From positions 98,901 through 162,900 of the forward strand of contig JBNJJV010000007.1 of NCBI GenBank assembly GCA_051750565.1: a stretch of DNA of 64,000 nucleotides, in the 5' to 3' direction. Shown piece by piece: positions 1 to 15,302 of the stretch. Every line of letters begins with the position of its first letter. The stretch's first letter is position 1. A program made the translations under genes and the position numbers. Below the pieces are notes generated by a model. It worked only from the letters and a program-made list of their open reading frames with translations. It made no database searches and was not told the DNA's origin. Source of the stretch: Bacillota bacterium. Its GTDB lineage: Bacteria > Bacillota > Bacilli > Bacillales > Bacillaceae_B.

Positions 1-825
1 GAAGAAAATTTTCTCGTGCAGGAGAAAGATCGCCGCAATGAGTGTAGTAACAGGCTCTAAATACAGAAACATCGACACCTTTGACGCATCCAATACCTCA
101 AGTGCCTTTCCCCAATACCAGTACGCAACACCTGATACAAATACACCGAGGAACACCAAGTGGGCCCATCCAACATTTGTTAAAAGAGAAATGCCTTCCC
201 AGCCGCGGTTTCGGATTAGAAAAGGGATGGTTAAGCTAAAACCCAGTAGACTCATATAAAAGGTGATGACGAGAGATGGCAGCTCAATACGGAGTTTTTT
301 CAGCAACACTGAGTAGATGGCCCAATTTAATGTACTGAGAATCATCAGGATATAACCGATGTTGACAGCAAAACCGATAGACTGCCCGCTCCTCGCTGTC
401 GTTACCATCAGCACACCTGTAATAGCTATAATCATGCCAAGCGCTTTTGGAACCGTCATTTTTTCATGTAAAAAAATCATGGAAAGGATGATGGTGAATA
501 CGGGAGAAAATGAAATCATCCAACCTGCTGATGATGCATCAATTGTAAGGAGGGCCGTCGCCTGGATCACTTGGTGAATGAAGACCCCAAGGACCCCAAG
601 CACAATCAGATGAGGGATATATTTGAGTGGAATGGTGAGTCGATATCTTTTTAAAAGTAAGAGCATGAGCAGAAACAGAGCTCCGATCGCAAACCGAAGA
701 ACGAGCAGCGTATACGGGTCAAGGGTGTCTAACACTGCTTTCGTTGATACAAATGATAGGCCCCAGAAGCTGATTGACATCGTGGCATATAAAGAGGCGG
801 CAACCTTTGTTTTAACTGGAATCAT
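1..825 (-). CDS. EamA/DMT-family transporter (C-terminal end lies beyond the left edge)
   Basis: The minus strand is open from ATG at 825 to base 1: MIPVKTKVAASLYATMSISFWGLSFVSTKAVLDTLDPYTLLVLRFAIGALFLL... It is multi-TM and EamA-like. It is missing from the ORF track only because its stop is outside the window; the + ORFs 38-898 are its antisense. Confidence 0.8.
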   Translation of the reverse strand, partial: MIPVKTKVAASLYATMSISFWGLSFVSTKAVLDTLDPYTLLVLRFAIGALFLLMLLLLKRYRLTIPLKYIPHLIVLGVLGVFIHQVIQATALLTIDASSAGWMISFSPVFTIILSMIFLHEKMTVPKALGMIIAITGVLMVTTARSGQSIGFAVNIGYILMILSTLNWAIYSVLLKKLRIELPSLVITFYMSLLGFSLTIPFLIRNRGWEGISLLTNVGWAHLVFLGVFVSGVAYWYWGKALEVLDASKVSMFLYLEPVTTLIAAIFLLHEKIFF

Positions 826-935
826 GGGCGATGTATCCTTTCGGAAAAAGGTCTTTGTATCATGCTATGCTCGTCCGGCGGAAAGATGTGGGGATTGAGG
901 TGGAATTTGGTGTGGGGATGGGATAAGGGTTAGGC

Positions 936-1031
936 GGATTTGAAAATAAATCTGGAAATTTGAAAATAAGTTGGGTGGATTTGAAAATAATTCTGAGAAT
1001 TTGAAAATAAGTTGCTTAATTTTGAAAATAA
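936..1031. repeat. Five phased copies of ATTTGAAAATAA (period about 20.5 bp)
   Basis: Copies start at 938, 958, 979, 999 and about 1020, each preceded by a short G-rich variable word (gcgg/ggaa/gtgg/gaga/ctta). Confidence 0.9.
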
Positions 1032-1071
1032 ACTAGAATTAGGTCCTGCTCAGGCATCGCTAATCCATCTA

Positions 1072-1167
1072 AAGTCGATAATATATTTGAAAAGTCGATA
1101 ATAATCATGCCAAACTCGATCATATATCAGGAAAGTCGATTATAAACACACCAAACTCGATCATATA
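1072..1167. repeat. Interleaved direct repeats AAGTCGATWATA (x3) and CCAAACTCGATCATATA (x2)
   Basis: AAGTCGATAATA occurs at 1072 and 1092, and AAGTCGATTATA at 1133. CCAAACTCGATCATATA occurs at 1110 and 1151. Spacings are 20 and 41 bp. Confidence 0.9.
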
Positions 1168-1255
1168 CCCACAAAAACCTATTCCGATACCCCCTCTCCT
1201 CGCCAACTTCACGCAAAAAAGTGCCCCAAATAGCCATTTGAGACACTCTCCTTCC

Positions 1256-2587
1256 TTAACTATGTGTAATTCGCTCACGAAACTGCGGTAAATACTCTTT
1301 ATGCACCTCAAACATTTCATCCAGCAGCTGCTTCGCCTTTACATCACTCGTCACCAACGGATTGATCGTCATGGCAAGCAATGCTTTCTCATAGGACCCT
1401 GTAACCGATGCTTCCGCAGCAACCCGTTCAAAAGATTTAATTTGATGAACAAGTCCACTCACAGCCACCGGCAGCTCACCAACTGCAATCGGCTTAGGAC
1501 CAGACTTCGTAACGACGCAGTTCACTTCCACAGCAGATCCCCTTGGTAGATCACTGATCGCTCCATCATTGCGGACATTCAGCGTTTGAATGTCTCCGCG
1601 ATCATTATAAATGGATGAGATGAGATTACAAGCCGCATCGCTGTAATAAGCCCCTCCCCTTTGTTCAAGCTGTGGAGGCTTAATATCAAGGTTTTCATCT
1701 TTGTAAAGTTCGAAAAGTTCATTTTCTAATTGCTGGACTACTTCGGCCCTGGTGGTCCCCGTCTTGAATTCCTCCAGCTGCTTCTCTAAAATATCACTCG
1801 TTTTATAAAAATAGCGATGATAAGGACATGGAATGATTCCTAGACTCTTGATGAACTCCGGTTCCCATGGAAGCGGCGCAATATTCCTCATGCTGACCTG
1901 CTTGTCAGGGTTACTCATGATTTCCAGAACGTCCCCTAAAACTGACTCACCGTCCACCAAAACGTCCAATCCGTACACCATATGATTCAATCCGGCGAAG
2001 TCGATATGCAGTCGTTCTACCTCCACATCAAGAAGCTTGGCCAATGTCATTCTCGTATTAATGGGAAGATTACATACGCCAACGACCTTAGGATGTGACC
2101 CGTAGCGCAGCAAAGCTTCTGTCACCATGCCTGCCGGATTGGTAAAATTGATCAACCAGGCGTCTGGGCAAAGCTCCTGCATTTCATCAGCGATTTCAAG
2201 TAGAACCGGGATCGTCCTCATTCCCTTGAACAATCCACCGGCCCCATTCGTTTCCTGACCGATCATCCCGTACTTGATCGGAAGCCTCTCATCTTGAATT
2301 CTCGCTTTTAGTTGTCCGACTCTCATTTGAGTCGTAACAAAATCAGCATCTGCGAGCGCCTCTTTCCGATCCAGGGTAAGGTGAATTTCCATCGGAACCT
2401 TTGCTTTTTCTACCATTCTCTTCGCTAAATTTCCTACTATAGTGAGTTTTTCTTTCCCTGCTTCAACATCCACCAGCCATAGCTCACTCACCGGAAGCTC
2501 ATCATAACGCTTGATCAATCCTTCAACAAACTCAGGAGTATAGCTTGATCCTCCGCCAATCGTAACGACCTTGATTCCGTTTTTCAT
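1256..2587 (-). CDS. Glycoside hydrolase family 4 6-phospho-beta-glucosidase (LicH/CelF/ChbF-like)
   Basis: MKNGIKVVTIGGGSSYTPEFVEGLIKRYDELPVSELWLVDV... is a GH4 N-terminal NAD-binding fold. ATG 2587 is preceded by GGAGGGA, so the ORF-track start 2623 is probably too long. Confidence 0.88.
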   Translation of the reverse strand: MKNGIKVVTIGGGSSYTPEFVEGLIKRYDELPVSELWLVDVEAGKEKLTIVGNLAKRMVEKAKVPMEIHLTLDRKEALADADFVTTQMRVGQLKARIQDERLPIKYGMIGQETNGAGGLFKGMRTIPVLLEIADEMQELCPDAWLINFTNPAGMVTEALLRYGSHPKVVGVCNLPINTRMTLAKLLDVEVERLHIDFAGLNHMVYGLDVLVDGESVLGDVLEIMSNPDKQVSMRNIAPLPWEPEFIKSLGIIPCPYHRYFYKTSDILEKQLEEFKTGTTRAEVVQQLENELFELYKDENLDIKPPQLEQRGGAYYSDAACNLISSIYNDRGDIQTLNVRNDGAISDLPRGSAVEVNCVVTKSGPKPIAVGELPVAVSGLVHQIKSFERVAAEASVTGSYEKALLAMTINPLVTSDVKAKQLLDEMFEVHKEYLPQFRERITHS

Positions 2588-2609
2588 TGTGTAAGCCTCC
2601 CTCCTATGA

Positions 2610-2900
2610 TTACTTGGCAACAAAGGCCAATATAAAACTTATTAAGAAACTGACAACCACTGCTAATAAAACTCGCTTCTTTTTAACAGAAGCATCTTCA
2701 ACGGGCCCTTCCATTTTTAAAAGAACAAATGAGAGTCCGGCCGATGCCGATATCCCCGTTGCTAAAAATACACTCCAATCCTTTGCGAGTCCCGCACTCA
2801 TCAAAGGATTGGAAAGAAGTAAAAGTCCAATAGATACGGAGATTAGAAGAACAAACACACTCCTAAAACCGATTCGCTTTGGGACAACCGTTTCTGTCAT
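2610..2900 (-). CDS. Small 3-TM membrane protein, unknown function
   Basis: MTETVVPKRIGFRSVFVLLISVSIGLLLLSNPLMSAGLAKDW... ATG 2900 lies 8 nt after GGAG. It is co-oriented in the PTS/GH4 operon. Confidence 0.55.
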   Translation of the reverse strand: MTETVVPKRIGFRSVFVLLISVSIGLLLLSNPLMSAGLAKDWSVFLATGISASAGLSFVLLKMEGPVEDASVKKKRVLLAVVVSFLISFILAFVAK

Positions 2901-2924
2901 TTGAATCACTCCTAATGCTAATGA

Positions 2925-3262
2925 AGAAGTGGGAATCCTAGGACCCCCACTTCTGCTTTTTGATATGAATGCTTATGTGGAGAGGGATAAGCCCCTCCAC
3001 CTTTCTTTTTGTCCAGCTACGGGGCTTAGAGGCTCGAGGTCATAAGCTAATCCGCTAAGAAGGTTAAAGAGCAACCTTCATGCCGGCTTAGCTTATGCTT
3101 GTCGCCTCTGGGCAAAGCCCTTCCGCTTTTCTATTTGTCCAGCTCCGGCGGCTAGCCCCTCGAGGTCATAAGTCCAGCCCACCAAAAAGGCAAAGAACGC
3201 CTTTCCGGTGGACTTGCCTTATGCTTGTCGGGGCTGATCGAGCCGCCTCCGCCTTTCTATTA
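2925..3262. repeat. Structured intergenic repeat array: two leader hairpins plus two 126-bp tandem long-hairpin units
   Basis: Unit 1 is 3011-3136 and unit 2 is 3137-3262. Both start GTCCAGCT and each is preceded by CCNCYTTTCTWTT. Each unit folds into a roughly 100-nt multi-helix hairpin (CATAAG...CTTATG core). It fills the whole gap between the EIIC stop and the next ORF. Confidence 0.85.
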
Positions 3263-4540
3263 TGCCGCTTGTTGATCGCTTTCTTCCATCTTCATCATCT
3301 TCTTGTCGTACATCTTGAAGAATGGGAAATAGATAGCGAAAGAGATTGCGATATTGATAAGAACCATGACAATGGCTCTCCAGTCACCACCCGTTGCCAG
3401 GTACGCTCCGATTGGTGCGGGCAGTGTCCAAGGGGGCATGATATAGGTTGGTGATACCAGCCCTATAGTTGTTGCTACATAAGCCAGAGTACCAGTGATC
3501 AGCGGGATTGTTACAAATGGAATGATCAAAATCGGATTCAATACAATAGGAGCACCGAAGATGATAGGCTCATTGATATTGAAGATACCCGGTACAATAC
3601 TTGTTCTTCCTAACGCTTTTAAGTATTTTGAGCGGGAGAAGAAGACCATTGCCAGAACTAATCCAAGAGTTGCTCCTGATCCACCTATCCAGATGAACCA
3701 TTGGTAGAATGTTTCGGGTGCGATGTGTGGAATTGCTTCTCCATTTGCAACCGCATCTGCATTGTTTACAAGGAACACTTCCCATAGTGGACGGGCAACC
3801 GTTCCTACTACAGACACCCCATGGATACCGAATGACCAGAAGAACGTAATTAAGAATACCGGAATCAATACGCCGAAAATACTGTCACCAGCGGTAACTA
3901 ATGGAGCAACCGCTACGCCAATTAGATGATGTAAATCTACTCCGGCTACTACGGTTACAGCAGAAACCAATAGAATAACAATCGCTACAGGAATAAGTGC
4001 TTCAAAGCTTCGTGATACAGATGCCGGTACTTGCTCCGGCATTTTGATCGTAATGTTTTTCGTTTTACAAAACCTCAAAATTTCAACTGCCAGAATCGAG
4101 ACGACCATGGCGACGAATAATCCATGACCACCGAGGTTGGTCATTGGCAGGACCCATCCTTCTCCATCCATTACTTTTGGTGTAATCGTTAATAGAAGTG
4201 CAGCTACTGAAATTTGTGCACCGGATAATGGATCCAGGTTATAGCTTTTCGAGAGGTTGTATCCTATCCCGAAGGCTATATAGAGTGACATGATAAACAT
4301 GGTCAGTCGGTAAGGAATCAGGATTTCAACGATGTTGTCAGCGGCCCACTGTTTGATGTCTCCGAATATTCCGCCATCAGGAAGCGGTGGAAAAGCTAAG
4401 ATCAGGAAAAATGAACCAACGATAATAAATGGCAGTGCTGAAATAACCCCATCCCGGATTGCTTGCAAGTGCCTTTGTTCAGAGAGCCGGGCCATTGGAC
4501 CTGACAAGTTGTTCTCTAGAAAATTTACAAACTTTTGCAT
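3260..4540 (-). CDS. PTS lactose/cellobiose-family EIIC permease
   Basis: MQKFVNFLENNLSGPMARLSEQRHLQAIRDGVISALPFIIVGSFFLILAFPPLP... is a typical Cel/Lic EIIC N-terminus; 426 aa, polytopic. Confidence 0.9.
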   Translation of the reverse strand: MQKFVNFLENNLSGPMARLSEQRHLQAIRDGVISALPFIIVGSFFLILAFPPLPDGGIFGDIKQWAADNIVEILIPYRLTMFIMSLYIAFGIGYNLSKSYNLDPLSGAQISVAALLLTITPKVMDGEGWVLPMTNLGGHGLFVAMVVSILAVEILRFCKTKNITIKMPEQVPASVSRSFEALIPVAIVILLVSAVTVVAGVDLHHLIGVAVAPLVTAGDSIFGVLIPVFLITFFWSFGIHGVSVVGTVARPLWEVFLVNNADAVANGEAIPHIAPETFYQWFIWIGGSGATLGLVLAMVFFSRSKYLKALGRTSIVPGIFNINEPIIFGAPIVLNPILIIPFVTIPLITGTLAYVATTIGLVSPTYIMPPWTLPAPIGAYLATGGDWRAIVMVLINIAISFAIYFPFFKMYDKKMMKMEESDQQAA

Positions 4541-4567
4541 GTTTGTACCCCCTTGTTTCCTATTAAA

Positions 4568-4873
4568 TTAGTTGGTTAATTCTTTTACTGTTTTCAGTAA
4601 AGTAGGACCGCCAAGTGGAGTGTACGCTTGTGGAGGAATCGGACCACAAGGAACATTCGCTTCATCAGCGGCTTTCTTCACTTGATCAAAGCGGTGTCTG
4701 ATCTGCGGTGCTACCATACAAACATCCCATCCCTTGGAGATCTCCTCCGATACTTCACCGGTTCCAATTGCATGTACTTCCATCTCAATCCCGGCTTTGT
4801 CCCCTTCTTTTTTCAGTGCATTCACGACAATTGCGCTGGACATTCCACCGGAACATACGAATAATACTCTCAT
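4568..4873 (-). CDS. PTS lactose/cellobiose-family EIIB
   Basis: MRVLFVCSGGMSSAIVVNALKKEG... carries the active-site Cys loop; 101 aa. Confidence 0.9.
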   Translation of the reverse strand: MRVLFVCSGGMSSAIVVNALKKEGDKAGIEMEVHAIGTGEVSEEISKGWDVCMVAPQIRHRFDQVKKAADEANVPCGPIPPQAYTPLGGPTLLKTVKELTN

Positions 4874-4875
4874 CT

Positions 4876-5742
4876 TTACTCTTCCTCCTCTTTCATTCTT
4901 TGAACTACTTCATGTGTATGAATAATTTGCTCGTAAACGCCATGTCCTTTTTTCATGCATAAAGCGACGAATAAAGCGTCAATCACGACGAGTTGAGCAA
5001 TTCTTGCTGTCATGGTTCCGATTCTGATATTGTGTTCTTCCTCGGAAATCGTTAAGACGATATCAGCGAGCTTCCTTGCGGGGGATTTCCCATGCTGTGT
5101 CAATAGAAGGATTGTGGCCCCTTTTTCTTGAGCGACGTTCATGAGCTTCAGTATTTCCTTTGTCTGACCTGATGTGGAGACGACGAAGAGAACGTCTCTT
5201 TCGGTTAAGTTTGCGGCCATCATCATTTGCACATGGATATCACTCGCTTGAAATGCCAGATAGTTCAGTCGTAATAGCTTTTGCGTAAAGTCTTCCGCTA
5301 CTACAGCTGAACCGCCTACTCCATACAGGTATACCCGTCCAGCTTTATGGAACGCGTTCACAGCCCGATCCAGTTCATTTATGGAAAAAAGCTTTTCCGT
5401 GTTCTTGATCGCTTGATAGGTGTTCACCAGTACTTTGTTGAATACGGTTTCAAGATTGTCTTCAAAGTGCAGAAGTGTATTGATGTCATGACTCTTTGTT
5501 TCTTCAATATTCGAGCTTTTGGCCAATTCGATCTTCAAACCGCTGAAACTATTGATTCCGATTCGTTTGCAGAACCGGATGATGGCTGCTTCACTGCTGC
5601 CACATGATTGTGAGAGTTGCTTTGTCGTCATTTCCATTACTTTCTCAGGAAACTCCAACACATATTGAGCAACCGCAATTTCAGACGGGGTGTAGTTCTC
5701 CATCTGACTTTTGATGTGTTTTAATACTTGAAATTCCGTCAT
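4876..5742 (-). CDS. RpiR/MurR-family transcriptional regulator (HTH_6 + SIS)
   Basis: MTEFQVLKHIKSQMENYTPSEIAVAQYVLEFPEKVMEMTTKQLSQSCGSSEAAIIRFCKRIG... plus a SIS domain (VYLYGVGGSAVVA). ATG 5742 lies 5 nt after GGAGG. Confidence 0.85.
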   Translation of the reverse strand: MTEFQVLKHIKSQMENYTPSEIAVAQYVLEFPEKVMEMTTKQLSQSCGSSEAAIIRFCKRIGINSFSGLKIELAKSSNIEETKSHDINTLLHFEDNLETVFNKVLVNTYQAIKNTEKLFSINELDRAVNAFHKAGRVYLYGVGGSAVVAEDFTQKLLRLNYLAFQASDIHVQMMMAANLTERDVLFVVSTSGQTKEILKLMNVAQEKGATILLLTQHGKSPARKLADIVLTISEEEHNIRIGTMTARIAQLVVIDALFVALCMKKGHGVYEQIIHTHEVVQRMKEEEE

Positions 5743-5768
5743 AGTCACCTCCAAAAAAATGATTGTCT

Positions 5769-5782
5769 TGAAAAGGCTTTCA
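5769..5782. promoter_or_regulatory. cre-like (CcpA) site TGAAAAGGCTTTCA
   Basis: It matches WTGNAANCGNWNNCW except for the central C. It lies in the divergent rpiR/EIIA promoter region. A 13-bp palindrome GAAATTAAATTTC sits at 5808-5820. Confidence 0.35.
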
Positions 5783-5902
5783 GTTTAATATGATTATATG
5801 CGATAATGAAATTAAATTTCAATATTATTTTAAAATATTTAAACTTTTATTTTACTATTCTAGTAGAAAATGATTCTAAACAGGAATGAGGAGGAATACA
5901 CA

Positions 5903-6235
5903 ATGGCAGAGGTACGCAACGTAGAAATGGAGATTTTTGAAATTATATCAAACGGCGGGAATGCAAAAAGCATCGCATATGAGGCCCTGACAAAGGCACA
6001 TGAAGGTAAGTTTGAAGAAGCTGAAGAGATGCTGAAAACAGCCCATGCAGAACTGAACAAAGCTCACAAAACGCAAACGAGTCTCATTCAGGCTGAAATC
6101 AATGGAGAAGATTTTGAAAAATCACTTCTGATGATTCATGCTCAAGACCACTTGATGACCTCCATCAGTGAAATTTCTTTAATTGAACAAATGATTCCCC
6201 TGTTAAAAAGAATAGATGCACTGGAAAACAAATAA
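5903..6235 (+). CDS. PTS lactose/cellobiose-family EIIA
   Basis: MAEVRNVEMEIFEIISNGGNAKSIAYEALTKAHEGKFEEAEEMLKTAHAELNKAHKTQT...HAQDHLM. ATG 5903 follows GAGGAGG. Confidence 0.88.
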   Translation: MAEVRNVEMEIFEIISNGGNAKSIAYEALTKAHEGKFEEAEEMLKTAHAELNKAHKTQTSLIQAEINGEDFEKSLLMIHAQDHLMTSISEISLIEQMIPLLKRIDALENK

Positions 6236-6253
6236 TTTTAAGGAGGCATACCA

Positions 6254-7342
6254 ATGAGTAAAAGACTGGGAGTTTCAATTTACCCAAACCATTCCACGAC
6301 TGAAAAGGATAAAGAATATCTTGCTCTGGCCTCATCTTACGGATTTAAGCGAGTGTTCACCTGCTTACTATCAGTGGAGGGGGATAAGGATGGAATCATC
6401 TCGAACTTTAAAGAAACGATTAAATTTGCCCGTGAAAAAAATATGGAAGTCATCGCTGATATCAGTCCCCGTATTTTCAAAGAACTGAACATCTCGTATG
6501 ATGATTTATCCTTTTTTGCCGATCTGGGTGCTCACGGTATCCGCCTTGATCTCGGGTATACAGGGCATGAAGAATCGATGATGTCGTACAACCCATATTA
6601 TTTGAAAATTGAACTCAATATGAGTAATGCAACGAAATACATCGATAACATCATAACGTATCAACCGAATAAGGATCAATTGCTTGGATGTCATAACTTC
6701 TATCCGCACCGCTACTCCGGTTTATCCTATCCATTCTTTATTGAATGCAGTAAAAAGTTTAAAGACTTCGGGATGAGAACGGCAGCGTTTGTTTCTTCTT
6801 CCGATGCAACACTCGGTCCCTGGCCGGTCACGGAAGGATTGCCTACATTAGAAATGCACCGTACTCTTCCTATTGATGTCCAGGCTAAGCATCTTTTTGC
6901 CACAGGGTTAATTGATGATGTCATTATTAGTAACGCTTATGCATCAGAAAGTGAAATGCAACTGCTTAGCGAACTGAACACATCGAAGCTGACCTTTACA
7001 GTCGAAACCCACGAAACGACAACAGACTTAGAAAAGACGATTATATTTGAAGAACCGCACTTCTATCGTGGTGATGTATCTGATTATCTGATCCGCTCGA
7101 CTCAAAGCCGCGTGAAATATCGTGGAAGAGAATTTGCTCCCCACAATACGGTTGACATAAAGCGCGGAGACATCGTAATTGAAAACGACCTATATGCCCA
7201 GTATGCAGGAGAACTTCAAATTGCGCTTCAAGATATGGAGAACTCAGGCAAAACCAATGTGGTGGGACGTATCCGTGAAGAAGAAATCTTCTTAGTGGAT
7301 TACCTGAAGCCTTGGGGTAAATTTGCCTTTCTAACTAAGTAA
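6254..7342 (+). CDS. DUF871 / MupG-family protein (6-phospho-N-acetylmuramidase-like)
   Basis: MSKRLGVSIYPNHSTTEKDKEYLALASSYGFKRVFTCLLSVEGDKD...; 362 aa. The DUF871 assignment is by recollection, supported by the murQ/anmK context. Confidence 0.75.
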   Translation: MSKRLGVSIYPNHSTTEKDKEYLALASSYGFKRVFTCLLSVEGDKDGIISNFKETIKFAREKNMEVIADISPRIFKELNISYDDLSFFADLGAHGIRLDLGYTGHEESMMSYNPYYLKIELNMSNATKYIDNIITYQPNKDQLLGCHNFYPHRYSGLSYPFFIECSKKFKDFGMRTAAFVSSSDATLGPWPVTEGLPTLEMHRTLPIDVQAKHLFATGLIDDVIISNAYASESEMQLLSELNTSKLTFTVETHETTTDLEKTIIFEEPHFYRGDVSDYLIRSTQSRVKYRGREFAPHNTVDIKRGDIVIENDLYAQYAGELQIALQDMENSGKTNVVGRIREEEIFLVDYLKPWGKFAFLTK

Positions 7343-7359
7343 TGTGGAGGTTTCTTTAG

Positions 7360-8274
7360 ATGACTAGAGTAATAGGAATCGATGCAGGCGGGACGAAAAT
7401 TCAAGGACTCGTTCTTGATTTAGAGAAGAACATCCTGTTTCAAAGCTTATCCGGACACGGCAATCCAACGGTTTCCTTTGAAGAGGCATTAACCAATCTC
7501 TCTTCCGTGATTCAACAATGCTTGGATTACACTTCTTCTGAAGAGGTTTCCCATATTGTGATCGGGATGGCAGGTGCCGAGTCCGGTAATCTGGCTCATC
7601 GAATCAAGATGGAGTTACAAAGGATAACTTCCCTGCCTATTATCCTTTTGAATGATGCCACCCTCGCCTATTTCAGTTTAATCGGGAATCAGAACGGTGT
7701 GATGACCATTGCGGGAACGGGTTCGATTTGTTATGGACGAAACGGGAAACAGGAAGGAACTACCGGCGGCTGGGGACATCTTCTTGGTGACGAAGGCAGT
7801 GCTTATCATATTGCAATTGAAGCATGTAAACAGATTTCGATGGAGATGGATTCAGGTAAACCACTTTCCCCTCTTTCCCATAACATTTTAAACGAAATCG
7901 GAGCGAGTGATGGGAAAGGGTTAAAAGGGTTTATCTATTCTTCTACCAAAGGTGAAATGGCAAAGCTTGCGAAAGTGGTTCACAAGCAAGCTGAGGCTGG
8001 TAATGAAGCGGCCTTTCTATTATTTAAAATAGCCGGGGAGCAGCTTGCCCGTCAGACGATTGCCTTATTGGAGAAACTACAGATCGATGTGAATCCGGTT
8101 ATCGCCTTAAAAGGAAGTGTCCTTGAACATAATGTGGTGGTGCAATCCAATTTTAAAGAAATGATTTCAGAGCGATTTCCAGACGCTGCCTATATCGTCG
8201 ACTCAACCTCCCCTGCCACCGGGGCAGTCGATGTGACAGAAGCCATCAGGGAAGGAAGGTTGTCATATGAGTAA
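7360..8274 (+). CDS. BadF/BadG/BcrA/BcrD-type ATPase, probable GlcNAc/MurNAc kinase
   Basis: MTRVIGIDAGGTKIQGLVLD... and GWGHLLGDEGSAYHI are sugar-kinase/ASKHA motifs. Confidence 0.75.
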   Translation: MTRVIGIDAGGTKIQGLVLDLEKNILFQSLSGHGNPTVSFEEALTNLSSVIQQCLDYTSSEEVSHIVIGMAGAESGNLAHRIKMELQRITSLPIILLNDATLAYFSLIGNQNGVMTIAGTGSICYGRNGKQEGTTGGWGHLLGDEGSAYHIAIEACKQISMEMDSGKPLSPLSHNILNEIGASDGKGLKGFIYSSTKGEMAKLAKVVHKQAEAGNEAAFLLFKIAGEQLARQTIALLEKLQIDVNPVIALKGSVLEHNVVVQSNFKEMISERFPDAAYIVDSTSPATGAVDVTEAIREGRLSYE

Positions 8275-9433
8275 GCGTTTAGCTGTTGGGTTAATGTCCG
8301 GTACGTCTGTGGATGGGGTGGATGCTGCCCTTGTTTCAATTGAAGGCAGCGGCACGGATACAAAAGTGGAGCTCGTTCATTATTCGACGGCTCCCTTCCC
8401 TCCACACGTAAAAAAGAAGATCTTCGACGTTATGAGTGTCACAGAATCGTCCACTCCCCTCCTTTCCAGCTTGCATTTTGAGCTTGGAGACGTTTATGCC
8501 GAGGCTGTTTTGAAGGTGTGTACAGAGGCTGACGTTTCAGTAGAGGCGTTAGACTTTATCGGATCTCACGGGCAAACGGTCTATCACCAGCCCTTTCATA
8601 CGGAAGATTCGGTTCCTTCCACTCTACAAATTGGTGAGCCGAGCGTGATTGCGTATCGAACAAACACTCAAGTCGTCTCCAATTTCCGCTCCATGGATAT
8701 GGTTGCCGGCGGTGAAGGGGCACCACTTGTACCTTATACTGAATTCCTTCTCTATCGAAAAAAAGATCAGGGAAGACTTCTTCAGAATATTGGCGGCATT
8801 GGAAATGTGACCGTACTTCCTAAAGATTGCGCTCTTCAAGAAGTATTCGCGTTTGATACTGGTCCCGGAAATATGGTTATAGATGGATTATGCGAGCGAC
8901 TATTCGGTCTATCTTTTGATGAGGATGGAGCGATTGCTGCGAAGGGAACGGTCCGCAAAGACGTCGCACAGAAATGGATGGAATGGGAGAAGGATTTCTT
9001 CCTTAAAGAACCTCCAAAATCAACGGGGCGCGAGCTGTTTGGAGAAGTATTCGTGAATCGGATCCTCGAAGAGTTTGGTGATCTTTCGAAAGAAGACCTG
9101 ATTGCGACGGCAACCTACTTCACTGCTCTGACGATTTCGGTTTCTTATGAGAAATTCATTCTTCCAGAGCACCCTATTAACGAAGTCATCATTGGCGGCG
9201 GCGGAAGCTACAATGGGACACTTCTCCGTATGATGAGGGAGCTTCTTCCTCAGTTAGCCATTCACATTCAGGAAGATTTCGGCTATTCTTCCGATGCCAA
9301 AGAAGCGATCGCCTTTGCCCTCCTGGCAAACGAAACGCTTCACGGAAATCCGGGCAACGTCCCAGGAGCAACAGGAGCAGGTAAACCCGTCATACTGGGG
9401 TCCATCACTCCCCGTCCCGTATTTACAAATTGA
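8267..9433 (+). CDS. anmK: Anhydro-N-acetylmuramic acid kinase
   Basis: MSKRLAVGLMSGTSVDGVDAALVSIEGSG... is the AnmK signature N-terminus. It overlaps the upstream gene by 8 nt. Confidence 0.88.
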   Translation: MSKRLAVGLMSGTSVDGVDAALVSIEGSGTDTKVELVHYSTAPFPPHVKKKIFDVMSVTESSTPLLSSLHFELGDVYAEAVLKVCTEADVSVEALDFIGSHGQTVYHQPFHTEDSVPSTLQIGEPSVIAYRTNTQVVSNFRSMDMVAGGEGAPLVPYTEFLLYRKKDQGRLLQNIGGIGNVTVLPKDCALQEVFAFDTGPGNMVIDGLCERLFGLSFDEDGAIAAKGTVRKDVAQKWMEWEKDFFLKEPPKSTGRELFGEVFVNRILEEFGDLSKEDLIATATYFTALTISVSYEKFILPEHPINEVIIGGGGSYNGTLLRMMRELLPQLAIHIQEDFGYSSDAKEAIAFALLANETLHGNPGNVPGATGAGKPVILGSITPRPVFTN

Positions 9434-9529
9434 AAGGCAGGTACTGTAGAGCATGGACCTTCATAAGATCCTACTGAAACGAGAAATCCTCATACATTAA
9501 ACATAGATACATTAAGCACGGAGAATATT

Positions 9530-10351
9530 TTGGAAAAAATCAATGGAGAAGATCAAACTGTTGCATACGCCGTGGAAAAAACCATCCCTGTCGTGGCAGG
9601 TGTGGTCGATTCCATCGTCGCAGGTTTAGAAAAAGGCGGCCGTCTTCTTTATGTAGGTGCAGGCACAAGCGGACGCCTAGGCATCCTTGACGCATCAGAG
9701 TGCCCGCCTACCTTTAGCACAGATCCCGGCAAGGTGATCGGAATCATCGCGGGTGGTGAAAGAGCCATCCAGTTTCCCCTGGAAGGCGCAGAGGATGATG
9801 AAGAAGGCGGCCGCAACGATATCGCGATTCGTGAAGTTGGCGCAAATGATGTCGTGGTTGGTATTGCTGCAAGCGGACGAACGCCTTATACGATAGGGGC
9901 CTTAAAGGAAGCAAAATCAAGAGGTGCTGTAACCGCGTCTGTTGTGTGCTCACCTCAATCCCTAATGTGTGATGTGGCCGATCATTCGATCGTCGCAGAA
10001 GTCGGTCCGGAAGTCGTCACAGGCTCGACACGCATGAAAGCCGGAACAGCCCAAAAACTGATCCTTAATATGCTCACAACCGCATCCATGATCAAACTTG
10101 GCAAAGTATACAGCAATCTCATGGTCGACGTGATGCCTTCAAACGAAAAACTGAAAGTCAGAGCGCGCAACATCATCATGGAAGCAGCGGACGTCTCTGA
10201 ACGAGAAGCAACCGAAGCCCTTGAAACATACGGCAGCGTCAAACCTGCCATCCTATCGCTTCTGACAGGCCTCGAAGAAAAAGAAGTCTACGACCTTCTC
10301 ACCCTTCACAAAGGCCACCTGCGCTCAGCCCTGAAAGCCGCAATGAAATAA
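9530..10351 (+). CDS. murQ: N-acetylmuramic acid 6-phosphate etherase; 5' end appears frameshifted (see finding)
   Basis: GAGTSGRLGILDASECPPTF, AASGRTPY and GSTRMKAGTAQK are SIS/MurQ motifs. The conserved N-terminal TETRNPHTLNIDTLSTENIL is encoded in-frame upstream (9473-9529) but has no start codon. Confidence 0.85.
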   Translation: MEKINGEDQTVAYAVEKTIPVVAGVVDSIVAGLEKGGRLLYVGAGTSGRLGILDASECPPTFSTDPGKVIGIIAGGERAIQFPLEGAEDDEEGGRNDIAIREVGANDVVVGIAASGRTPYTIGALKEAKSRGAVTASVVCSPQSLMCDVADHSIVAEVGPEVVTGSTRMKAGTAQKLILNMLTTASMIKLGKVYSNLMVDVMPSNEKLKVRARNIIMEAADVSEREATEALETYGSVKPAILSLLTGLEEKEVYDLLTLHKGHLRSALKAAMK

Positions 10352-10359
10352 CCTTTTAT

Positions 10360-10371
10360 GAGGGACGGACC
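10360..10371 (+). repeat. Single arm of the GAGGGACGGACC element
   Basis: Exact 12-mer 8 nt after the murQ stop. Confidence 0.9.
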
Positions 10372-10450
10372 TTGACTAAACGTCAGGTATCGTCTCTTTA
10401 CTCTTTTTATATCCGATTTGAAAAACATGTTAAAAAAGGTGGAAATTAGT

Positions 10451-11863
10451 ATGATCACTCCTAACATCAAAAAACGGTTCATCGAAATCGTTGGCAAAGA
10501 AAGTTACAGGGATACTCCCGCGGAAAAGCTTGTCTATTCCTATGACGCAACTCCTAATTACCAATCCATGCCTGACGCGGTCATCGTTCCCCGCTCGACA
10601 GAGGAAGTATCAGAAATCGTGAAAATCTGCAACGAGCATGGCATTCCAATCGTCCCAAGAGGATCCGGAACGAATCTCTGCGCAGGCACCTGCCCTACAG
10701 AAGGCGGACTTGTTCTCTTATTCACCCATATGAACAAGATTCTGGAAGTGGACGAAGAGAATCTGACGGTTACCGCCCAGCCTGGTGTGGTGACCCTGGA
10801 TCTCATTCATACAGTTGAAGCAAAGGGTCTCTTCTATCCTCCTGACCCAAGCTCCATGAAAATCTCAACGATCGGTGGAAATATCAATGAGAACTCCGGT
10901 GGATTGAGAGGATTGAAATATGGAGTTACACGGGATTATGTACTGGCTTTAGAAGCTGTGCTCCCTAACGGAGACATCATCCGTACCGGGGGAAAACTCG
11001 CAAAAGACGTTGCTGGCTATGATTTAACCCGCCTTTTCGTTGGATCTGAAGGAACCCTATGCGTCATCACCGAAGCGACATTAAAGCTCGTTCCCATGCC
11101 TGAAACGAAGCAAACGATGCTGGCCCTCTATCAGGATATTGAAGCAGCTGCCCAAAGCGTTTCAAGTATCATCGCCAATCGTATTATTCCGACTACCCTT
11201 GAATTTTTAGATCAGCCTACACTTGAGGTGGTTGAGGATTTTGCCAAAATCGGGTTACCAACCGATGTAAAAGCAGTACTCTTGATCGAACAGGACGGTC
11301 CTCCGGAAGTGGTTGCACGTGATATGAAACGAATGGAAGAAGTGTGTTTACAGAACAACGCCGTATCCGTTCAATTAGCCAAAACGGAGATAGAAGCAGA
11401 TGCCCTTCGTACCGCCCGCCGCTCTGCCCTATCGGCACTGGCCCGTCTCAAACCGACGACGATTTTAGAGGACGCGACGGTTCCACGCTCGGAAATCGCC
11501 AAGATGGTGAAAGCGATCAATGATATTTCCGATCGCTATGAGTTGAAGATTTGTACCTTTGGTCATGCCGGGGACGGAAACCTTCACCCGACGGTTGCGA
11601 CAGATGCCAGGGACCATGATGAAATAGAACGTGTCGAAGCGGCATTCGAAGAAATCTTTGCTCATGCCATTGAATTGGGCGGAACCATCACTGGAGAACA
11701 CGGTGTCGGCATGATGAAAGCCCCTTACCTCGAATGGAAACTGGGACCCGAAGGCATTGCAGCCATGAAAATAATCAAGCAATCATTCGATTCGAACAAC
11801 ATTATGAATCCGAATAAAGTATTCGCTAAAGAATCAAGAAAACGTGTGGTGATTTCAAGATGA
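10451..11863 (+). CDS. glcD: FAD-linked oxidase, glycolate oxidase/D-lactate dehydrogenase subunit GlcD-like
   Basis: MITPNIKKRFIEIVGKESYRDTPAEKLVYSYDATP...VPRGSGTNLCAG. ATG 10451 follows AAAGGTGG. Confidence 0.85.
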   Translation: MITPNIKKRFIEIVGKESYRDTPAEKLVYSYDATPNYQSMPDAVIVPRSTEEVSEIVKICNEHGIPIVPRGSGTNLCAGTCPTEGGLVLLFTHMNKILEVDEENLTVTAQPGVVTLDLIHTVEAKGLFYPPDPSSMKISTIGGNINENSGGLRGLKYGVTRDYVLALEAVLPNGDIIRTGGKLAKDVAGYDLTRLFVGSEGTLCVITEATLKLVPMPETKQTMLALYQDIEAAAQSVSSIIANRIIPTTLEFLDQPTLEVVEDFAKIGLPTDVKAVLLIEQDGPPEVVARDMKRMEEVCLQNNAVSVQLAKTEIEADALRTARRSALSALARLKPTTILEDATVPRSEIAKMVKAINDISDRYELKICTFGHAGDGNLHPTVATDARDHDEIERVEAAFEEIFAHAIELGGTITGEHGVGMMKAPYLEWKLGPEGIAAMKIIKQSFDSNNIMNPNKVFAKESRKRVVISR

Positions 11864-13179
11864 CAACCCTTCTAGAAAAACAAAAGATACAACAGGAATT
11901 TAAAGACCGCATGGATGAAGATGAATTATTGAATTGTATGAGATGCGGTTTCTGTCTCCCTTCCTGCCCTACGTATATTGAGTCAGGATTTAAAGAATCC
12001 CACTCCCCTCGCGGTCGAATTGCCTTAATTAAGGCAGTGGTGGATGGTGTCATAGAACCCGATGAAGAAGTCGAACGAACATTGGATTTGTGCTTAGGCT
12101 GCAGAGCCTGTGAACCCGTTTGTCCTTCCGGTGTGAACTACGGTCACCTATTAGAAGACGCACGCGATATCATCAATCAAAATAAAAAACATTCCCTTCC
12201 TGTACGGGTCCTTCGAAAAACCGTTTTTGAAGGATTATTCCCACACCAGGACAGAATGAGAATGGTCACGAACCTTCTTGGAATCTACCAACGCTCAGGA
12301 TTGCAGAAGGCGGTCCACAGGACGGGTGTGATAAAACTATTACCGGAAAGCATGGCGACAATGGAACGCGTACTTCCTCAAGTTCCAAAGTTGAAAGACA
12401 TGAAGGAACGCCCAACGTCTCTTTCCTCGATTGGTGACGTCCGTAAAAAAGTCGCTTTCTTCTCTGGCTGTTTAATGGATACGATGTTTCTGGAAACAAA
12501 TAATGCCACTACGAAACTATTGCAGTTGGCAGGCTGTGACATTGTGATCCCAAAGATGCAAACCTGCTGCGGAGCCTTACATGGTCATAGCGGTGAAAAA
12601 AATGCAGCGAAGGATTTGGCAAAGCGAAACATCGCTGCTTTTGAAGAATCAGGAGTCGATTACATCATCACCAATGCCGGGGGATGCGGAGCCTTTCTCG
12701 TCGACTATGATCACTTACTGAAGGATGATCCAGATTGGAAAGAACGTGCGGTTCAATTTATAAATAAAATCAAAGACATCTCTTCCATTCTTGTAGAATT
12801 AGAGTTTCATAAAAAGAAATTGAACATTTCCTCTCAACGGATCACGTATCAGGATTCGTGTCACTTGCGAAACGTGCAGCGTACATTTGCGGAACCAAGG
12901 CTCCTCCTTCGATCAGTGGAAGGTGCTGATTACGTCGAGATGAAACAAGCCGATCACTGTTGCGGATCAGCCGGGATCTACAACATCGTCGAATCAGAAA
13001 TGTCCATGAAGATCCTCGATCACAAAATGGACAACGTCGAACAAACCCAAGCAACCACCATCATCACATCAAACCCAGGCTGCCTCCTCCAAATGAAACT
13101 CGGCATCGAACGGGAAGGCCTATCTAACAAAATGCGTGCAATCCACATCGTAGACTTTTTATTGGAAGCAATTCAGTGA
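11860..13179 (+). CDS. glcF: (Fe-S)-binding subunit GlcF-like (2x 4Fe-4S motifs + CCG domains)
   Basis: CMRCGFCLPSCPTY and CLGCRACEPVCPSGV. It overlaps the glcD stop by 4 nt. Confidence 0.85.
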   Translation: MTTLLEKQKIQQEFKDRMDEDELLNCMRCGFCLPSCPTYIESGFKESHSPRGRIALIKAVVDGVIEPDEEVERTLDLCLGCRACEPVCPSGVNYGHLLEDARDIINQNKKHSLPVRVLRKTVFEGLFPHQDRMRMVTNLLGIYQRSGLQKAVHRTGVIKLLPESMATMERVLPQVPKLKDMKERPTSLSSIGDVRKKVAFFSGCLMDTMFLETNNATTKLLQLAGCDIVIPKMQTCCGALHGHSGEKNAAKDLAKRNIAAFEESGVDYIITNAGGCGAFLVDYDHLLKDDPDWKERAVQFINKIKDISSILVELEFHKKKLNISSQRITYQDSCHLRNVQRTFAEPRLLLRSVEGADYVEMKQADHCCGSAGIYNIVESEMSMKILDHKMDNVEQTQATTIITSNPGCLLQMKLGIEREGLSNKMRAIHIVDFLLEAIQ

Positions 13180-13261
13180 GAGGGACGGACCTCTTCATTT
13201 ACTCAAGTCCCGTTAAATCAACGTTTTGGTTTCGGATGGGGTGATTGGAGGTCCGTCCCTC
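13180..13261. repeat. Long-form GAGGGACGGACC hairpin element (also a likely glcF terminator)
   Basis: The arms are at 13180-13191 and 13250-13261. The core contains TTAAATCAACGTTTTGGT, and a T8 run follows. It starts directly after the glcF stop. Confidence 0.85.
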
Positions 13262-13268
13262 CTTTTTT

Positions 13269-13427
13269 TTACTTTTTGATTTTTAAAAATGAAAAGTAGA
13301 CGAGAAAGGAAAGGATGATTCCATAGGCTGCTAGTAGAGTAAGAGAATTAGTGGCGTTTGATGTAAGCCAGATGGACATGGCTGCGATGAGGACTATTGG
13401 TGCGCTTATCCAGATTGTTTTGTTCAT
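13269..13427 (-). CDS. Small (52 aa) 2-TM membrane protein, below the ORF-track cutoff
   Basis: GGAGGT-N6-ATG(13427): MNKTIWISAPIVLIAAMSIWLTSNATNSLTLLAAYGIILSFLVYFSFLKIKK, with stop TAA at 13269-71. Confidence 0.5.
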   Translation of the reverse strand: MNKTIWISAPIVLIAAMSIWLTSNATNSLTLLAAYGIILSFLVYFSFLKIKK

Positions 13428-13528
13428 TTTTGGACCTCCTTTTGGTACTAAGTAATTGATATTGATATATACGTTTGGGCTGTGGAATGGTTTCCTTTTT
13501 TATTGTTGAGAGGTGGTTGATTTCGGTG

Positions 13529-13812
13529 TGTACCTGGTACAATTCAGGTGTTTGGAGCCTGGTACATTCTAAGGGTTTGTAACTGGTTCATTCTCGCTTA
13601 TTCGCATCCTTGCAAATCAACATATTGGGGACTTCCATCGGGATAATAGATAAATCAGCAGCTTAAAATCGTCACTTATTCAGCTGCTGATTTTCCTGGA
13701 ATATTCAACAGGTGAATTTCTTTGATATTTCAACAGGAGAATAAACGCTATTATTCTCCTGTTGAAACTCATCTAATTTTGCCACCTGATTCCCAGCGTT
13801 TTTTCACCTGTT
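13529..13812. repeat. Word-repeat / nested-hairpin non-coding block
   Basis: TGTACCTGGTACA is at 13529. A 12-bp stem pairs AAATCAGCAGCT (13652) with AGCTGCTGATTT (13682). A 14-bp stem pairs 13731-44 with 13751-64. This is nested inside AACAGGTGAA (13707) / TTCACCTGTT (13803). Confidence 0.8.
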
Positions 13813-13870
13813 AAACTACCACAAATTCAAACCAACAATCACTACACAAAAAGAGACGAACCCCACCCAA

Positions 13871-13931
13871 GGTCCGTCCCTCACTCTAACGTTTTGATTA
13901 GGGGCGTGGGGGGGTTGGAGGTCCGTCCCTC
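13871..13931 (-). repeat. Two same-orientation arms (GGTCCGTCCCTC) of the 12-mer element
   Basis: The arms are at 13871-82 and 13920-31, separated by a core containing AACGTTTTGATTA. The second arm ends 3 nt from the bioA stop. Confidence 0.85.
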
Positions 13932-13934
13932 TCC

Positions 13935-15302
13935 CTAAACCCCAACCGCTCCCTTCGTTGTGATTTCTATAGCTTCCACCATAATCCCTACCATTTTCTC
14001 AAGCTCTTCTTCGGTTGTGGCGAGTGGCGGCATGAAAACGATGGTGTCTCCTATCGGACGGGTTAGCATACCCAGTTCACGCATCTTGATGGTGGTCCAG
14101 TAGCCGACTCTGTCTTCCCATAGGAACTGCTTATTACTGGCTTTATCCTGCACCAACTCAATGCCGCAAATCATTCCAAGCTGTCTAATGCTGCTTACAT
14201 GTGGATGATCCTTTAATGGAGCTAACAAGGATTCAATGATTCTCGCTTTCTCTTGAACTTTCCCAATCAGATTTTCTCTTTCATAGATCTCCAGATTCGC
14301 CAATGCCGCAGCACACCCAAGCTGGTTTCCTGTATAGGAGTGGCCGTGGAAGAAGGTTTTCAGTGATGTGTAATCATCATAGAAAGCTTCATAGACTTCT
14401 TCGGAGGTTAAGGTTGCTGCAATAGGGAGGTATCCTCCGGTGATCCCTTTTGCCACTGTCATGATGTCAGGCTGGACTTGTTCGTGCTCGACTGCGAACA
14501 TTTTGCCTGTACGGCCGAAGCCTGTTGCCACTTCATCGACAATCAGAAGCACCTCATATTTTCGGCAAAGCTTTTCGACCCCTTTAAAGTAGCCCTTTGG
14601 CATAATATTCATGCCGCCAGCACCCTGTATCAACGACTCCACTGTCATCCCGGCAATCTCATGATGATGCTCTTTCAAAATCCCTTCCAGTTCCTCAAGT
14701 GCACGATCTCGAATCTCTTCTTCATCCTCTAAATCCGGGTGATGTACTACATCAGGGAACGGGGCAACGAGTGATTCGAACATAAGAGATTTGTAGACTC
14801 TATGAAAAATGTCCACTTTCCCTACACTGATCGCACCGACCGTATCACCGTGATAGGCATTTTGAAGAGTGATAAACTTATGCTTTTCCGGCTTTCCTTT
14901 ATTTTGCCAATATTGATAGGCCATTTTAATGGCAATTTCAACAGAGGTTGCACCGCTGTCTGAATAAAAGACTCTCGCTAATATCGCCGGAGAAAGTTCA
15001 ACCAGCTTCTCGGCTAACAAAATAGATGGAACATTGGTGGCACCGAGCAAAGTAGAATGTGCGATTTTATCGAGCTGATCCTTAATCGCTTGATTGATTT
15101 CCTCATTACGATGGCCATGAACATTTAGCCAAAGAGAAGAATATCCATCAAGATATAGGTTGCCGTAGATGTCTCGAAGATAAACGCCTTCCCCGCTTTC
15201 AATCACTAACGGATGCTCATCATAATCCTTCATCTGTGTAAACGGAAGCCACATATACTGACTGCTTTTTTCAATTAGCTGCTGTTGGTTCACTCTGTAC
15301 AT
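13935..15302 (-). CDS. bioA: Adenosylmethionine-8-amino-7-oxononanoate aminotransferase
   Basis: [64 protein letters not shown]... is class-III aminotransferase, BioA-type. Confidence 0.88.

Follow-up and report, generated by a model that had tools for sequence, protein, structure and literature searches.

Peptidoglycan sugar recycling of Gram-positive bacteria has, to our knowledge, been worked out only for the MurP-based routes of Staphylococcus aureus and Bacillus subtilis, neither of which possesses AnmK. In the present study a gene cluster was analyzed that lies at positions 1256-13179 of a 64,000-nucleotide stretch of a Bacillota genome (contig JBNJJV010000007.1 of assembly GCA_051750565.1; the whole stretch is hereafter called the window) and joins a phosphotransferase system (PTS) of the Lac/Cel family with two phospho-glycosidases of glycoside hydrolase families 170 and 4 (GH170, GH4), a BadF-type kinase, the anhydro-N-acetylmuramic acid (anhMurNAc) kinase AnmK, a gene for MurQ, the etherase of N-acetylmuramic acid 6-phosphate (MurNAc-6P), and a GlcD-GlcF pair (GlcDF). 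The closest public relatives of the window are Rossellomorea species (Bacillaceae), and the genome comprises 4.6 Mb. An earlier interpretation made from the letters alone, here called the sequence-only reading, had proposed a chitobiose-type PTS that imports a wall-derived disaccharide; this is supported in silico by the conserved gene set and by separate chb-like and MurP operons in the same genome, and the cluster probably serves PTS-based salvage and catabolism of amino-sugar disaccharides derived from peptidoglycan, alongside the MurP/MupG route.

Among described systems, the mupG-murQ-murP-murR operon of S. aureus (PMC6262408) shares with the route proposed for the cluster the import of a disaccharide by a PTS, cleavage by a GH170 enzyme, MurQ and control by an RpiR/MurR regulator. 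However, the transporter of the cluster consists of Lac/Cel-type enzyme II subunits EIIA, EIIB and EIIC instead of the glucose-family EIIBC of MurP, its GH170 is a distant paralogue of the MurP-linked copy in the same genome, where the canonical operon is also present, and the cluster has GH4, AnmK, a MurK-like kinase and GlcDF in addition. The chbRCDE/chbBA genes of L. paracasei (PMC12791066) likewise combine a cellobiose-type PTS with a GH170 enzyme for a PTS-phosphorylated amino-sugar disaccharide, but the substrate there is chitobiose, the regulator ChbR is of GntR type, a DUF3284 protein is encoded, and AnmK, MurQ, GH4, kinase and GlcDF are lacking, whereas the present genome has its own E. 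coli-type chb-like operon with GH4 and YdjC.

In anhydromuropeptide recycling of Escherichia coli (AmpG, NagZ, AmpD, AnmK, MurQ, MurR) AnmK converts 1,6-anhydro-MurNAc to MurNAc-6P, from which MurQ forms N-acetylglucosamine 6-phosphate (GlcNAc-6P) together with D-lactate (PMC5061867); this order of steps and a MurR-like repressor would recur here, although the cluster would rely on a PTS with phosphorylation of GlcNAc instead of the AmpG permease and on phospho-glycosidases instead of NagZ, and its host is a Gram-positive spore-former. The murQ-murR-murP-amiE-nagZ(-namZ) system of B. subtilis and the ATP-binding cassette (ABC)-type AnmK clusters of Bacillales resemble it in MurQ, RpiR and the salvage of peptidoglycan sugars, and several of the ABC-type clusters also carry the palindrome described below and, in several families, GlcDF next door. 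They differ in that degradation is extracellular (NagZ, AmiE) and monosaccharides are taken up by MurP or an ABC transporter, whereas the cluster would import intact disaccharides by a Lac-family PTS; AnmK and GH170 were not found in the B. subtilis control genome. That the gene combination departs from the B. subtilis and S. aureus layouts, as the sequence-only reading had stated, holds true, a Lac/Cel PTS standing in place of MurP and AnmK, GH4 and GlcDF being added. Within the literature searched no publication describing this cluster was found.

Gene identities and parallel systems in the genome

The gene inventory was compiled from an open reading frame (ORF) listing and from Pfam and NCBIfam scans, which recovered every gene previously listed on either strand of the interval. 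A separate EIIA, an EIIB with its cysteine and an EIIC of the lacE subfamily assign the transporter to the Lac/Cel family (TC 4.A.3). EIIC (3260..4540, minus strand; PF02378) attains 411 bits against the lacE-subfamily model TIGR00410 (cut-off 236) and has B. cereus ChbC (3qnq) as its best PDB match; it stays under the cut-offs of the cellobiose equivalog TIGR00359 (411.3 bits, cut-off 434.45) and of NF007634 (198 bits, cut-off 760). EIIB (4568..4873, minus strand; PF02302) displays the active-site Cys7 within its N-terminal VCSGGMSS, and EIIA (5903..6235, plus strand, ORF open from 5870; PF02255) the conserved HAQDH motif, so that the PTS is predicted to be phosphorylation-competent. Translation of EIIA probably starts at ATG 5903, which is preceded by the ribosome-binding site GAGGAGG.

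Two other operons of the genome have to be set beside these genes. A canonical murQ2-murP-mupG2 operon with a glucose-family EIIBC is situated at C8:27847-31230 (L067:5848-9231), and C8:50210-55131 (L068:3211-8132) holds a chb-like operon of the order GH4-EIIC-EIIA-EIIB, from which a GntR gene and a YdjC gene (ChbG-type) diverge. The EIIC of the latter passes TIGR00359 at 449 bits, whereas that of the window does not, and the two are only 35% identical. Since separate MurP/MupG and chb-like operons are present, the cluster represents a third system and not simply the chitobiose/cellobiose system of this genome.

The GH170 gene (6254..7342, plus strand; DUF871, MupG-like) encodes both domains of the GH170/MupG family, PF19200 (MupG_N, 331 bits) and PF05913 (MupG_C, 138 bits), and its product is orthologous to the B. 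cereus protein of structure 1x7f (427 bits), flagged as untested by Kluj et al. (PMC6262408). It shares only 27-29% identity with the MurP-linked MupG paralogue of the genome, and in the GH170 tree a 100/100 branch sets the Lac-PTS-linked clade apart from the MurP-linked paralogues. We consider a 6-phospho-N-acetylglucosaminidase with GlcNAc-6P-(anh)MurNAc as substrate more likely for this enzyme than a muramidase of the MupG type. MupG, with MurNAc-6P-GlcNAc as substrate, is the only biochemically characterised GH170 (PMC6262408); for GH170 ChbE of L. paracasei there is genetic evidence that it and a cellobiose-type PTS are required for the use of chitobiose, imported as the PTS-phosphorylated sugar (PMC12791066), and the DUF871 gene in a cellobiose-linked PTS operon of B. 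coagulans constitutes a weaker tie (PMC6271610).

GH4 (1256..2623, minus strand; PF02056 and PF11975) belongs to the NAD-dependent 6-phospho-beta-glycosidases of the LicH/CelF/ChbF class: its best solved relatives, 5c3m and 1s6y, are both 6-phospho-beta-glucosidases (E ~1e-210), and BglT matches at 1e-73, ahead of phospho-alpha enzymes. Identity to the second GH4 of the genome, in the chb-like operon, is only 53%. E. coli ChbF acts on GlcN-6P glycosides, and de-N-acetylated forms are common in Bacillus walls; by analogy with ChbF, GH4 of the cluster may, speculatively, handle de-N-acetylated GlcN-6P forms.

Of the two kinases, the product of 7360..8274 (plus strand; PF01869) is a BadF/BcrAD-type ASKHA sugar kinase, whose best solved relative is MurK of Clostridium acetobutylicum (8zo3), a kinase of the same type for MurNAc and GlcNAc, although the match reaches only 116 bits. 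AnmK (8267..9433, plus strand; PF03702) scores 549.5 bits against the equivalog NF007142 (cut-off 435) and is encoded by a single copy in the genome.

For murQ (9453..10351, plus strand) the earlier assignment stands as to the domain and fails as to an intact gene. Its ATG lies at 9453, and in alignment with three congeners one G is missing after 9472, at codon 7-8; the site reads ATCCT-ACTGAA here and ATCCTGACTGAA in the three congeners, and it is not a homopolymer. The missing G is also present in contigs of a 92%-identical relative, which derive from four small RNA-library runs of one study (holes in run X4 are uninformative). The main frame is opened only by TTG 9530, with the conserved N-terminus out of frame; the ORF from this codon matches TIGR00274 at 349 bits (cut-off 302) and lacks profile positions 1-27, and thus no full-length MurQ is encoded in the cluster in spite of the domain match. 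The deletion is either that of a true pseudogene or an assembly error, and the cluster copy is probably a pseudogene or yields an N-terminally truncated product. It occurs only in the Rossellomorea sub-clade of the window, whereas the intact murQ2 elsewhere in the genome is kept in every Rossellomorea genome checked, because of which loss or frameshift of the cluster copy could be tolerated.

Between EIIC and GH4 lies a small ORF (2610..2909, minus strand) for a protein of ~96-99 amino acids with three transmembrane segments. It has no family in Pfam or NCBIfam, and the Atlas gives only 'hypothetical protein' clusters of Bacillota. It is kept at the same position in Rossellomorea (84-96% identity), has homologues of 28-39% identity in Peribacillus, Virgibacillus and three further families (at least five genera in all), and where conserved always sits between EIIC and GH4. 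It may be an accessory protein of the PTS, positionally comparable to the DUF3284 protein ChbD of L. paracasei. The gap between EIIC and this ORF varies from ~100 to ~780 bp in congeners and is occupied here by a non-genic, variable insert of ~350 bp with inverted repeats (2925..3262). Over this block 51-130 bp are passed over or duplicated in the contigs of the relative, or the contigs loop back, and word depth rises to 10-40 times that of the flanks, which indicates that the repeat unit is present in multiple copies in the genome.

Conservation of the gene set and of a promoter palindrome

Onto 46 loci encoding GH170 relatives the proteins of the cluster were mapped. All 18 Rossellomorea loci show GH4, the small ORF, EIIC, EIIB and RpiR on one strand and EIIA, GH170, kinase and AnmK divergent from them. 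Outside Rossellomorea, every locus with a GH170 at least 64% identical has a Lac-type PTS, and of these 25 loci 24 encode MurQ and 21 encode AnmK within 10 kb, with differing gene orders and orientations in Peribacillus, Virgibacillus, B. cereus/pseudomycoides, Brevibacillus, Gottfriedia and Neobacillus. The more distant GH170 loci of Heyndrickxia, Fredinandcohnia and Mammaliicoccus (52-59% identical) have the PTS, while the peptidoglycan genes are absent. Lack of conserved adjacency would have spoken against the sequence-only reading; instead, the set of PTS, GH170, GH4, kinase, AnmK, MurQ and RpiR was found to be kept through the shuffling of gene order in at least eight genera, and the cluster is widespread in Bacillales and not peculiar to this strain.

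Two of the mapped records bear unexpected labels. L040 (DASQNU010000069.1), labelled as a metagenome-assembled genome of Candidatus Bathyarchaeia, has a gene order near-identical to that of Brevibacillus migulae, with the two GH170s as sisters in the tree, and L042 (NZ_QWLJ01000040.1), labelled 'Roseburia sp. 1XD42-34', mirrors the cluster of Virgibacillus chiguensis; in both cases wrong binning or labelling of the record is probable.

A second comparison was centred on AnmK, which was detected in 89 genomes out of a sample of 401 from Bacillales, and comprised 40 neighbourhoods of 20 kb from different Bacillales genera outside Rossellomorea. Orthologous EIIC (67-81% identical) occurs in ten of the 40. 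In genus g49 only an operon of EIIB, EIIC, AnmK and kinase is present, behind two operator copies, with the GH170 gene at another locus. Gene content that survives rearrangement, together with this minimal operon, ties the PTS to AnmK. An ABC-type counterpart, L092, comprises MurQ, a binding protein, two permeases, GH3, RpiR, AnmK, a further GH3 and a beta-lactamase-like protein. This AnmK/MurQ/GlcDF cluster, which comes from another family, has at its flanks genes for a protein of the lytic transglycosylase family with a SpoIID domain and for a NagA-like amidohydrolase (L092:17806-19383, L092:2293-3477).

The regulator gene (4876..5754, minus strand; HTH_6 and SIS domains, PF01418 and PF01380) belongs to the RpiR/MurR family, its product staying under every NCBIfam equivalog cut-off (125 bits against 408 for the E. 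coli MurR model NF012026). In the divergent promoter region upstream of it, sequence inspection revealed a cre-like box TGAAAAGGCTTTCA at 5769..5782 and the palindrome TGAAATTAAATTTCA at 5807..5821, a candidate MurR/RpiR operator that shares bases with the -35 box of the best promoter match, a minus-strand site (5822-5793) with 11 of 12 positions in the scan. Its pattern TGAAA-N5-TTTCA has two matches in the window where 0.36 are expected and is rare, with 0.03 per kb over 1.7 Mb of compared loci. It recurs in the equivalent promoter regions of Peribacillus, Brevibacillus, Gottfriedia, Neobacillus and several further families as well as upstream of ABC-type AnmK/MurQ operons (e.g., L094, L096 and L097), and a palindrome common to PTS-type and ABC-type AnmK/MurQ clusters fits a shared MurR-like regulon. 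The second match in the window (TGAAAAATCCTTTCA, 15981-15995) lies in the divergent bioD/bioY region, where several congeners have it too; a relation to the cluster is improbable, and it may be a biotin-operator half-site.

GlcD-GlcF and the surrounding repeats

The plus strand continues beyond murQ with glcD (10451..11863; PF01565 and PF02913), for the subunit of an FAD-dependent 2-hydroxyacid dehydrogenase, and glcF (11860..13179; PF02754 and PF13183), for an Fe-S subunit with two CCG domains and a 4Fe-4S dicluster. Translation of glcD most likely starts at ATG 10451, preceded by AAGGTGG, 99 bp beyond the murQ stop and thus in agreement with the ~100 bp read earlier. GlcD exceeds the cut-off of TIGR00387, the glycolate-oxidase GlcD equivalog (588 bits, cut-off 567.9), and remains below that of NF008408; GlcF reaches 263 bits against NF008434 (cut-off 333) and also resembles LdhH. 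A GlcDEF glycolate oxidase of the E. coli type is not encoded, the operon having no GlcE gene; the architecture is the two-gene Bacillus type. Solved relatives of GlcD include a glycolate oxidase, LctD as subunit of a lactate dehydrogenase, and D-lactate dehydrogenases, and by sequence the class is indistinguishable between glycolate oxidase and D-lactate dehydrogenase. The GlcD/GlcF paralogues of the genome itself are 21-34% identical.

Orthologues of GlcD/GlcF (54-85% identical) were encountered within 10 kb of anmK in nine of the 40 Bacillales neighbourhoods, in eight GTDB families and several orientations, whereas the flank controls BioA, BioD, BioY and EamA occurred in none of the 40. The pair also adjoins the cluster in Rossellomorea, Gottfriedia and Neobacillus, and in Neobacillus and L096 glcD and murQ diverge across a TGAAA-N5-TTTCA operator. 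The proposal that GlcDF oxidises the D-lactate released by MurQ gains from this adjacency and from the divergence from murQ in two lineages; it is weakened by the fact that GlcDF is facultative, not obligatory, for the cluster.

A hairpin at 10360..10398 (plus strand; -20 kcal/mol, z = -2.6) with an interrupted U-run separates murQ from glcD. It is conserved upstream of glcD in congeners with or without murQ, while the sequence 5' of it differs between the two. In the ~50 bp from hairpin to glcD a consensus scan, the only search made for promoters there, detected no promoter-like site. With the U-run interrupted and this gap free of a promoter-like site, read-through from the sugar operon would be the simplest source of glcDF mRNA. 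Directly 3' of glcF a strong hairpin of paired repeats followed by T8 (13180..13269, plus strand) is the likely terminator of the plus-strand unit. Contigs in three of the RNA-library runs span 3264-13269; they cross the divergent promoters and might stem from DNA, and neither transcription as one unit nor expression levels can be read from them.

Both hairpins contain a dispersed 12-mer, GAGGGACGGACC, of which the window has 18 copies where 0.18 are expected (10360, 13180/13250, 13871, 13920, 33867/33927, 36878/36897, 39491/39510, 50442, 58222, 60208, 60751/60805 and 63219/63270). The copies often form inverted pairs, giving long intergenic hairpins followed by T-runs, and look like a genus-specific family of repetitive extragenic palindromic (REP) or terminator-like repeats. 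At the other end of the cluster, tandem arrays of ~20- and 41-bp units (TRF) occupy 929-1176 in the gap between GH4 and EamA, and an RNA-library contig of the relative has indels at 1086-1090 within them. No known RNA family was found by Rfam at E <= 0.1 in 800-14000, and hairpin and repeats are thus not catalogued riboswitches.

Proposed route, alternative explanations and significance

The analysis establishes what the genes are, that the set is conserved, the presence of the operator motif and the redundancy of paralogues; the substrate, the effector, the division of labour among the enzymes and co-transcription of glcDF are inferences. AnhMurNAc occurs only at the reducing end, and its C6 is part of the anhydro ring and hence not free. 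PTS transporters of the Lac family place the phosphate on the non-reducing sugar (PMC6262408), and, C6 of anhMurNAc being blocked, uptake as GlcNAc-6P-(anh)MurNAc would be the most economical model. The most likely substrate, as deduced from the genes, would be GlcNAc-(1,6-anhydro)MurNAc, phosphorylated on GlcNAc.

Secreted muramidases or lytic transglycosylases would, together with amidases, release GlcNAc-beta-1,4-MurNAc and GlcNAc-beta-1,4-(1,6-anhydro)MurNAc, which the Lac/Cel EIIABC would import while phosphorylating the non-reducing GlcNAc at C6, the one C6-OH that is free in the anhydro form. GH170 and/or GH4 would then split the 6-phospho-disaccharide into GlcNAc-6P (or GlcN-6P) and free MurNAc or anhMurNAc. 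AnmK would convert anhMurNAc to MurNAc-6P, the MurK-like kinase would phosphorylate MurNAc or GlcNAc, and MurQ, here by way of the intact murQ2 as the cluster copy is broken, would yield GlcNAc-6P and D-lactate. NagA and NagB would feed the products into glycolysis, and GlcDF, expressed by read-through past the weak hairpin, would oxidise D-lactate to pyruvate. The MurR-like RpiR would repress both divergent promoters at TGAAATTAAATTTCA, with the cre-like box adding catabolite control, and the MurP/MupG2 operon would cover the opposite linkage, MurNAc-GlcNAc. In its full form, with both GlcNAc-1,6-anhydroMurNAc and GlcNAc-MurNAc as substrates, the GH170 clade as 6-phospho-beta-N-acetylglucosaminidases, GH4 possibly reserved for GlcN-6P forms, AnmK and the MurK-like kinase rescuing the reducing-end sugar and GlcDF as a dedicated D-lactate oxidase, this scheme is put forward tentatively.

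Several observations weigh against salvage of peptidoglycan disaccharides. The cluster murQ carries a frameshift here and most congeners lack it, Neobacillus-type clusters are devoid of GH4 and some others of AnmK, so that no single fixed enzyme set seems to be required, and GH4 is ~75% identical to enzymes deposited as 6-phospho-beta-glucosidases. E. coli ChbF requires a deacetylase (PMC12791066), and the cluster encodes none. The pairing of GH170/DUF871 with a PTS of the Lac family is linked to chitobiose in L. paracasei (PMC12791066) and, more weakly, to cellobiose in B. coagulans (PMC6271610). As regards the oxidase, a terminator-like hairpin stands between murQ and glcD, glcDF is unlinked to the cluster in R. 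pakistanensis, a genome of the B. cereus group and g49, and in one cluster-carrying Rossellomorea genome no glcDF was found.

Part of this evidence would suit an ordinary system for N,N'-diacetylchitobiose (or cellobiose/beta-glucosides), in which chitobiose-6'P would be split by GH170 and/or GH4, the BadF-type kinase would phosphorylate GlcNAc, and AnmK and MurQ would form a separate module alongside. Besides the L. paracasei and B. coagulans operons just cited, the EIIC, just under the cellobiose equivalog cut-off and with B. cereus ChbC as best PDB match, the 6-phospho-beta-glucosidase class of GH4 and the existence of more distant clusters of GH170, GH4 and PTS (52-64% identical) without AnmK and MurQ fit such a system. 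We nevertheless regard it as unlikely: the genome already has a chb-like operon with a ChbG-type deacetylase and an EIIC that passes the cellobiose/chitobiose model, the EIIC/GH170 orthogroup stays linked to AnmK, MurQ and RpiR despite rearrangement in at least eight genera, a minimal EIIB-EIIC-AnmK-kinase operon exists, and the promoters carry the palindrome common to ABC-type AnmK/MurQ clusters. Alternatively, MurNAc-beta-1,4-GlcNAc, a glucosaminidase product, could be imported and phosphorylated on MurNAc, with GH170 as a true 6-phospho-N-acetylmuramidase like MupG of S. aureus, the kinase acting on GlcNAc and AnmK serving anhMurNAc from another route. The specificity of MupG as sole characterised member of the family (PMC6262408), the resemblance of the kinase to MurNAc/GlcNAc kinases and MurQ near 24 of 25 non-Rossellomorea loci agree with it. 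Yet murP-mupG2 already provides for MurNAc-GlcNAc in this genome, the cluster GH170 falls into a deep clade separate from the mupG2 product with 27-29% identity to it, AnmK and GH4 would be left without a role in the operon although AnmK stays with EIIB-EIIC in the minimal one, and anhMurNAc is confined to the reducing end with C6 blocked, all of which renders this explanation improbable.

More weight has to be given to an independent GlcDF, that is, a glycolate or general 2-hydroxyacid oxidase whose position is inherited synteny without functional link, the hairpin terminating the sugar operon; this is a real possibility, if a somewhat doubtful one. It accords with the passing of the glycolate-oxidase GlcD equivalog, with the terminator-like hairpin, with the genomes in which glcDF is unlinked or was not found, and with RNA-library contigs that cannot show co-transcription. 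It accounts less well for glcDF adjoining AnmK/MurQ clusters of varied architecture and orientation in eight further GTDB families, where other flank genes score 0/40, for the divergence of glcD and murQ around a shared operator region in two lineages and for the ~50 bp without promoter-like site ahead of glcD; moreover, D-lactate is the only 2-hydroxyacid made by the pathway, and D-lactate dehydrogenases are among the relatives of GlcD.

If salvage of GlcNAc-(anh)MurNAc by the Lac/Cel PTS holds true, anhydromuropeptide sugars would for the first time be assigned a PTS route, and both peptidoglycan sugars would be degraded completely in spore-forming Bacillales. The B. cereus orthologue of the GH170 enzyme has a crystal structure (1x7f), and genetically tractable carriers of the cluster exist in the B. 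cereus group. The cluster thereby opens a way to the function of the large non-MupG part of GH170, to the fate of the D-lactate released by MurQ and to the reuse of lytic transglycosylase and muramidase products by Bacillales, be it during growth, in germination or from neighbouring cells.

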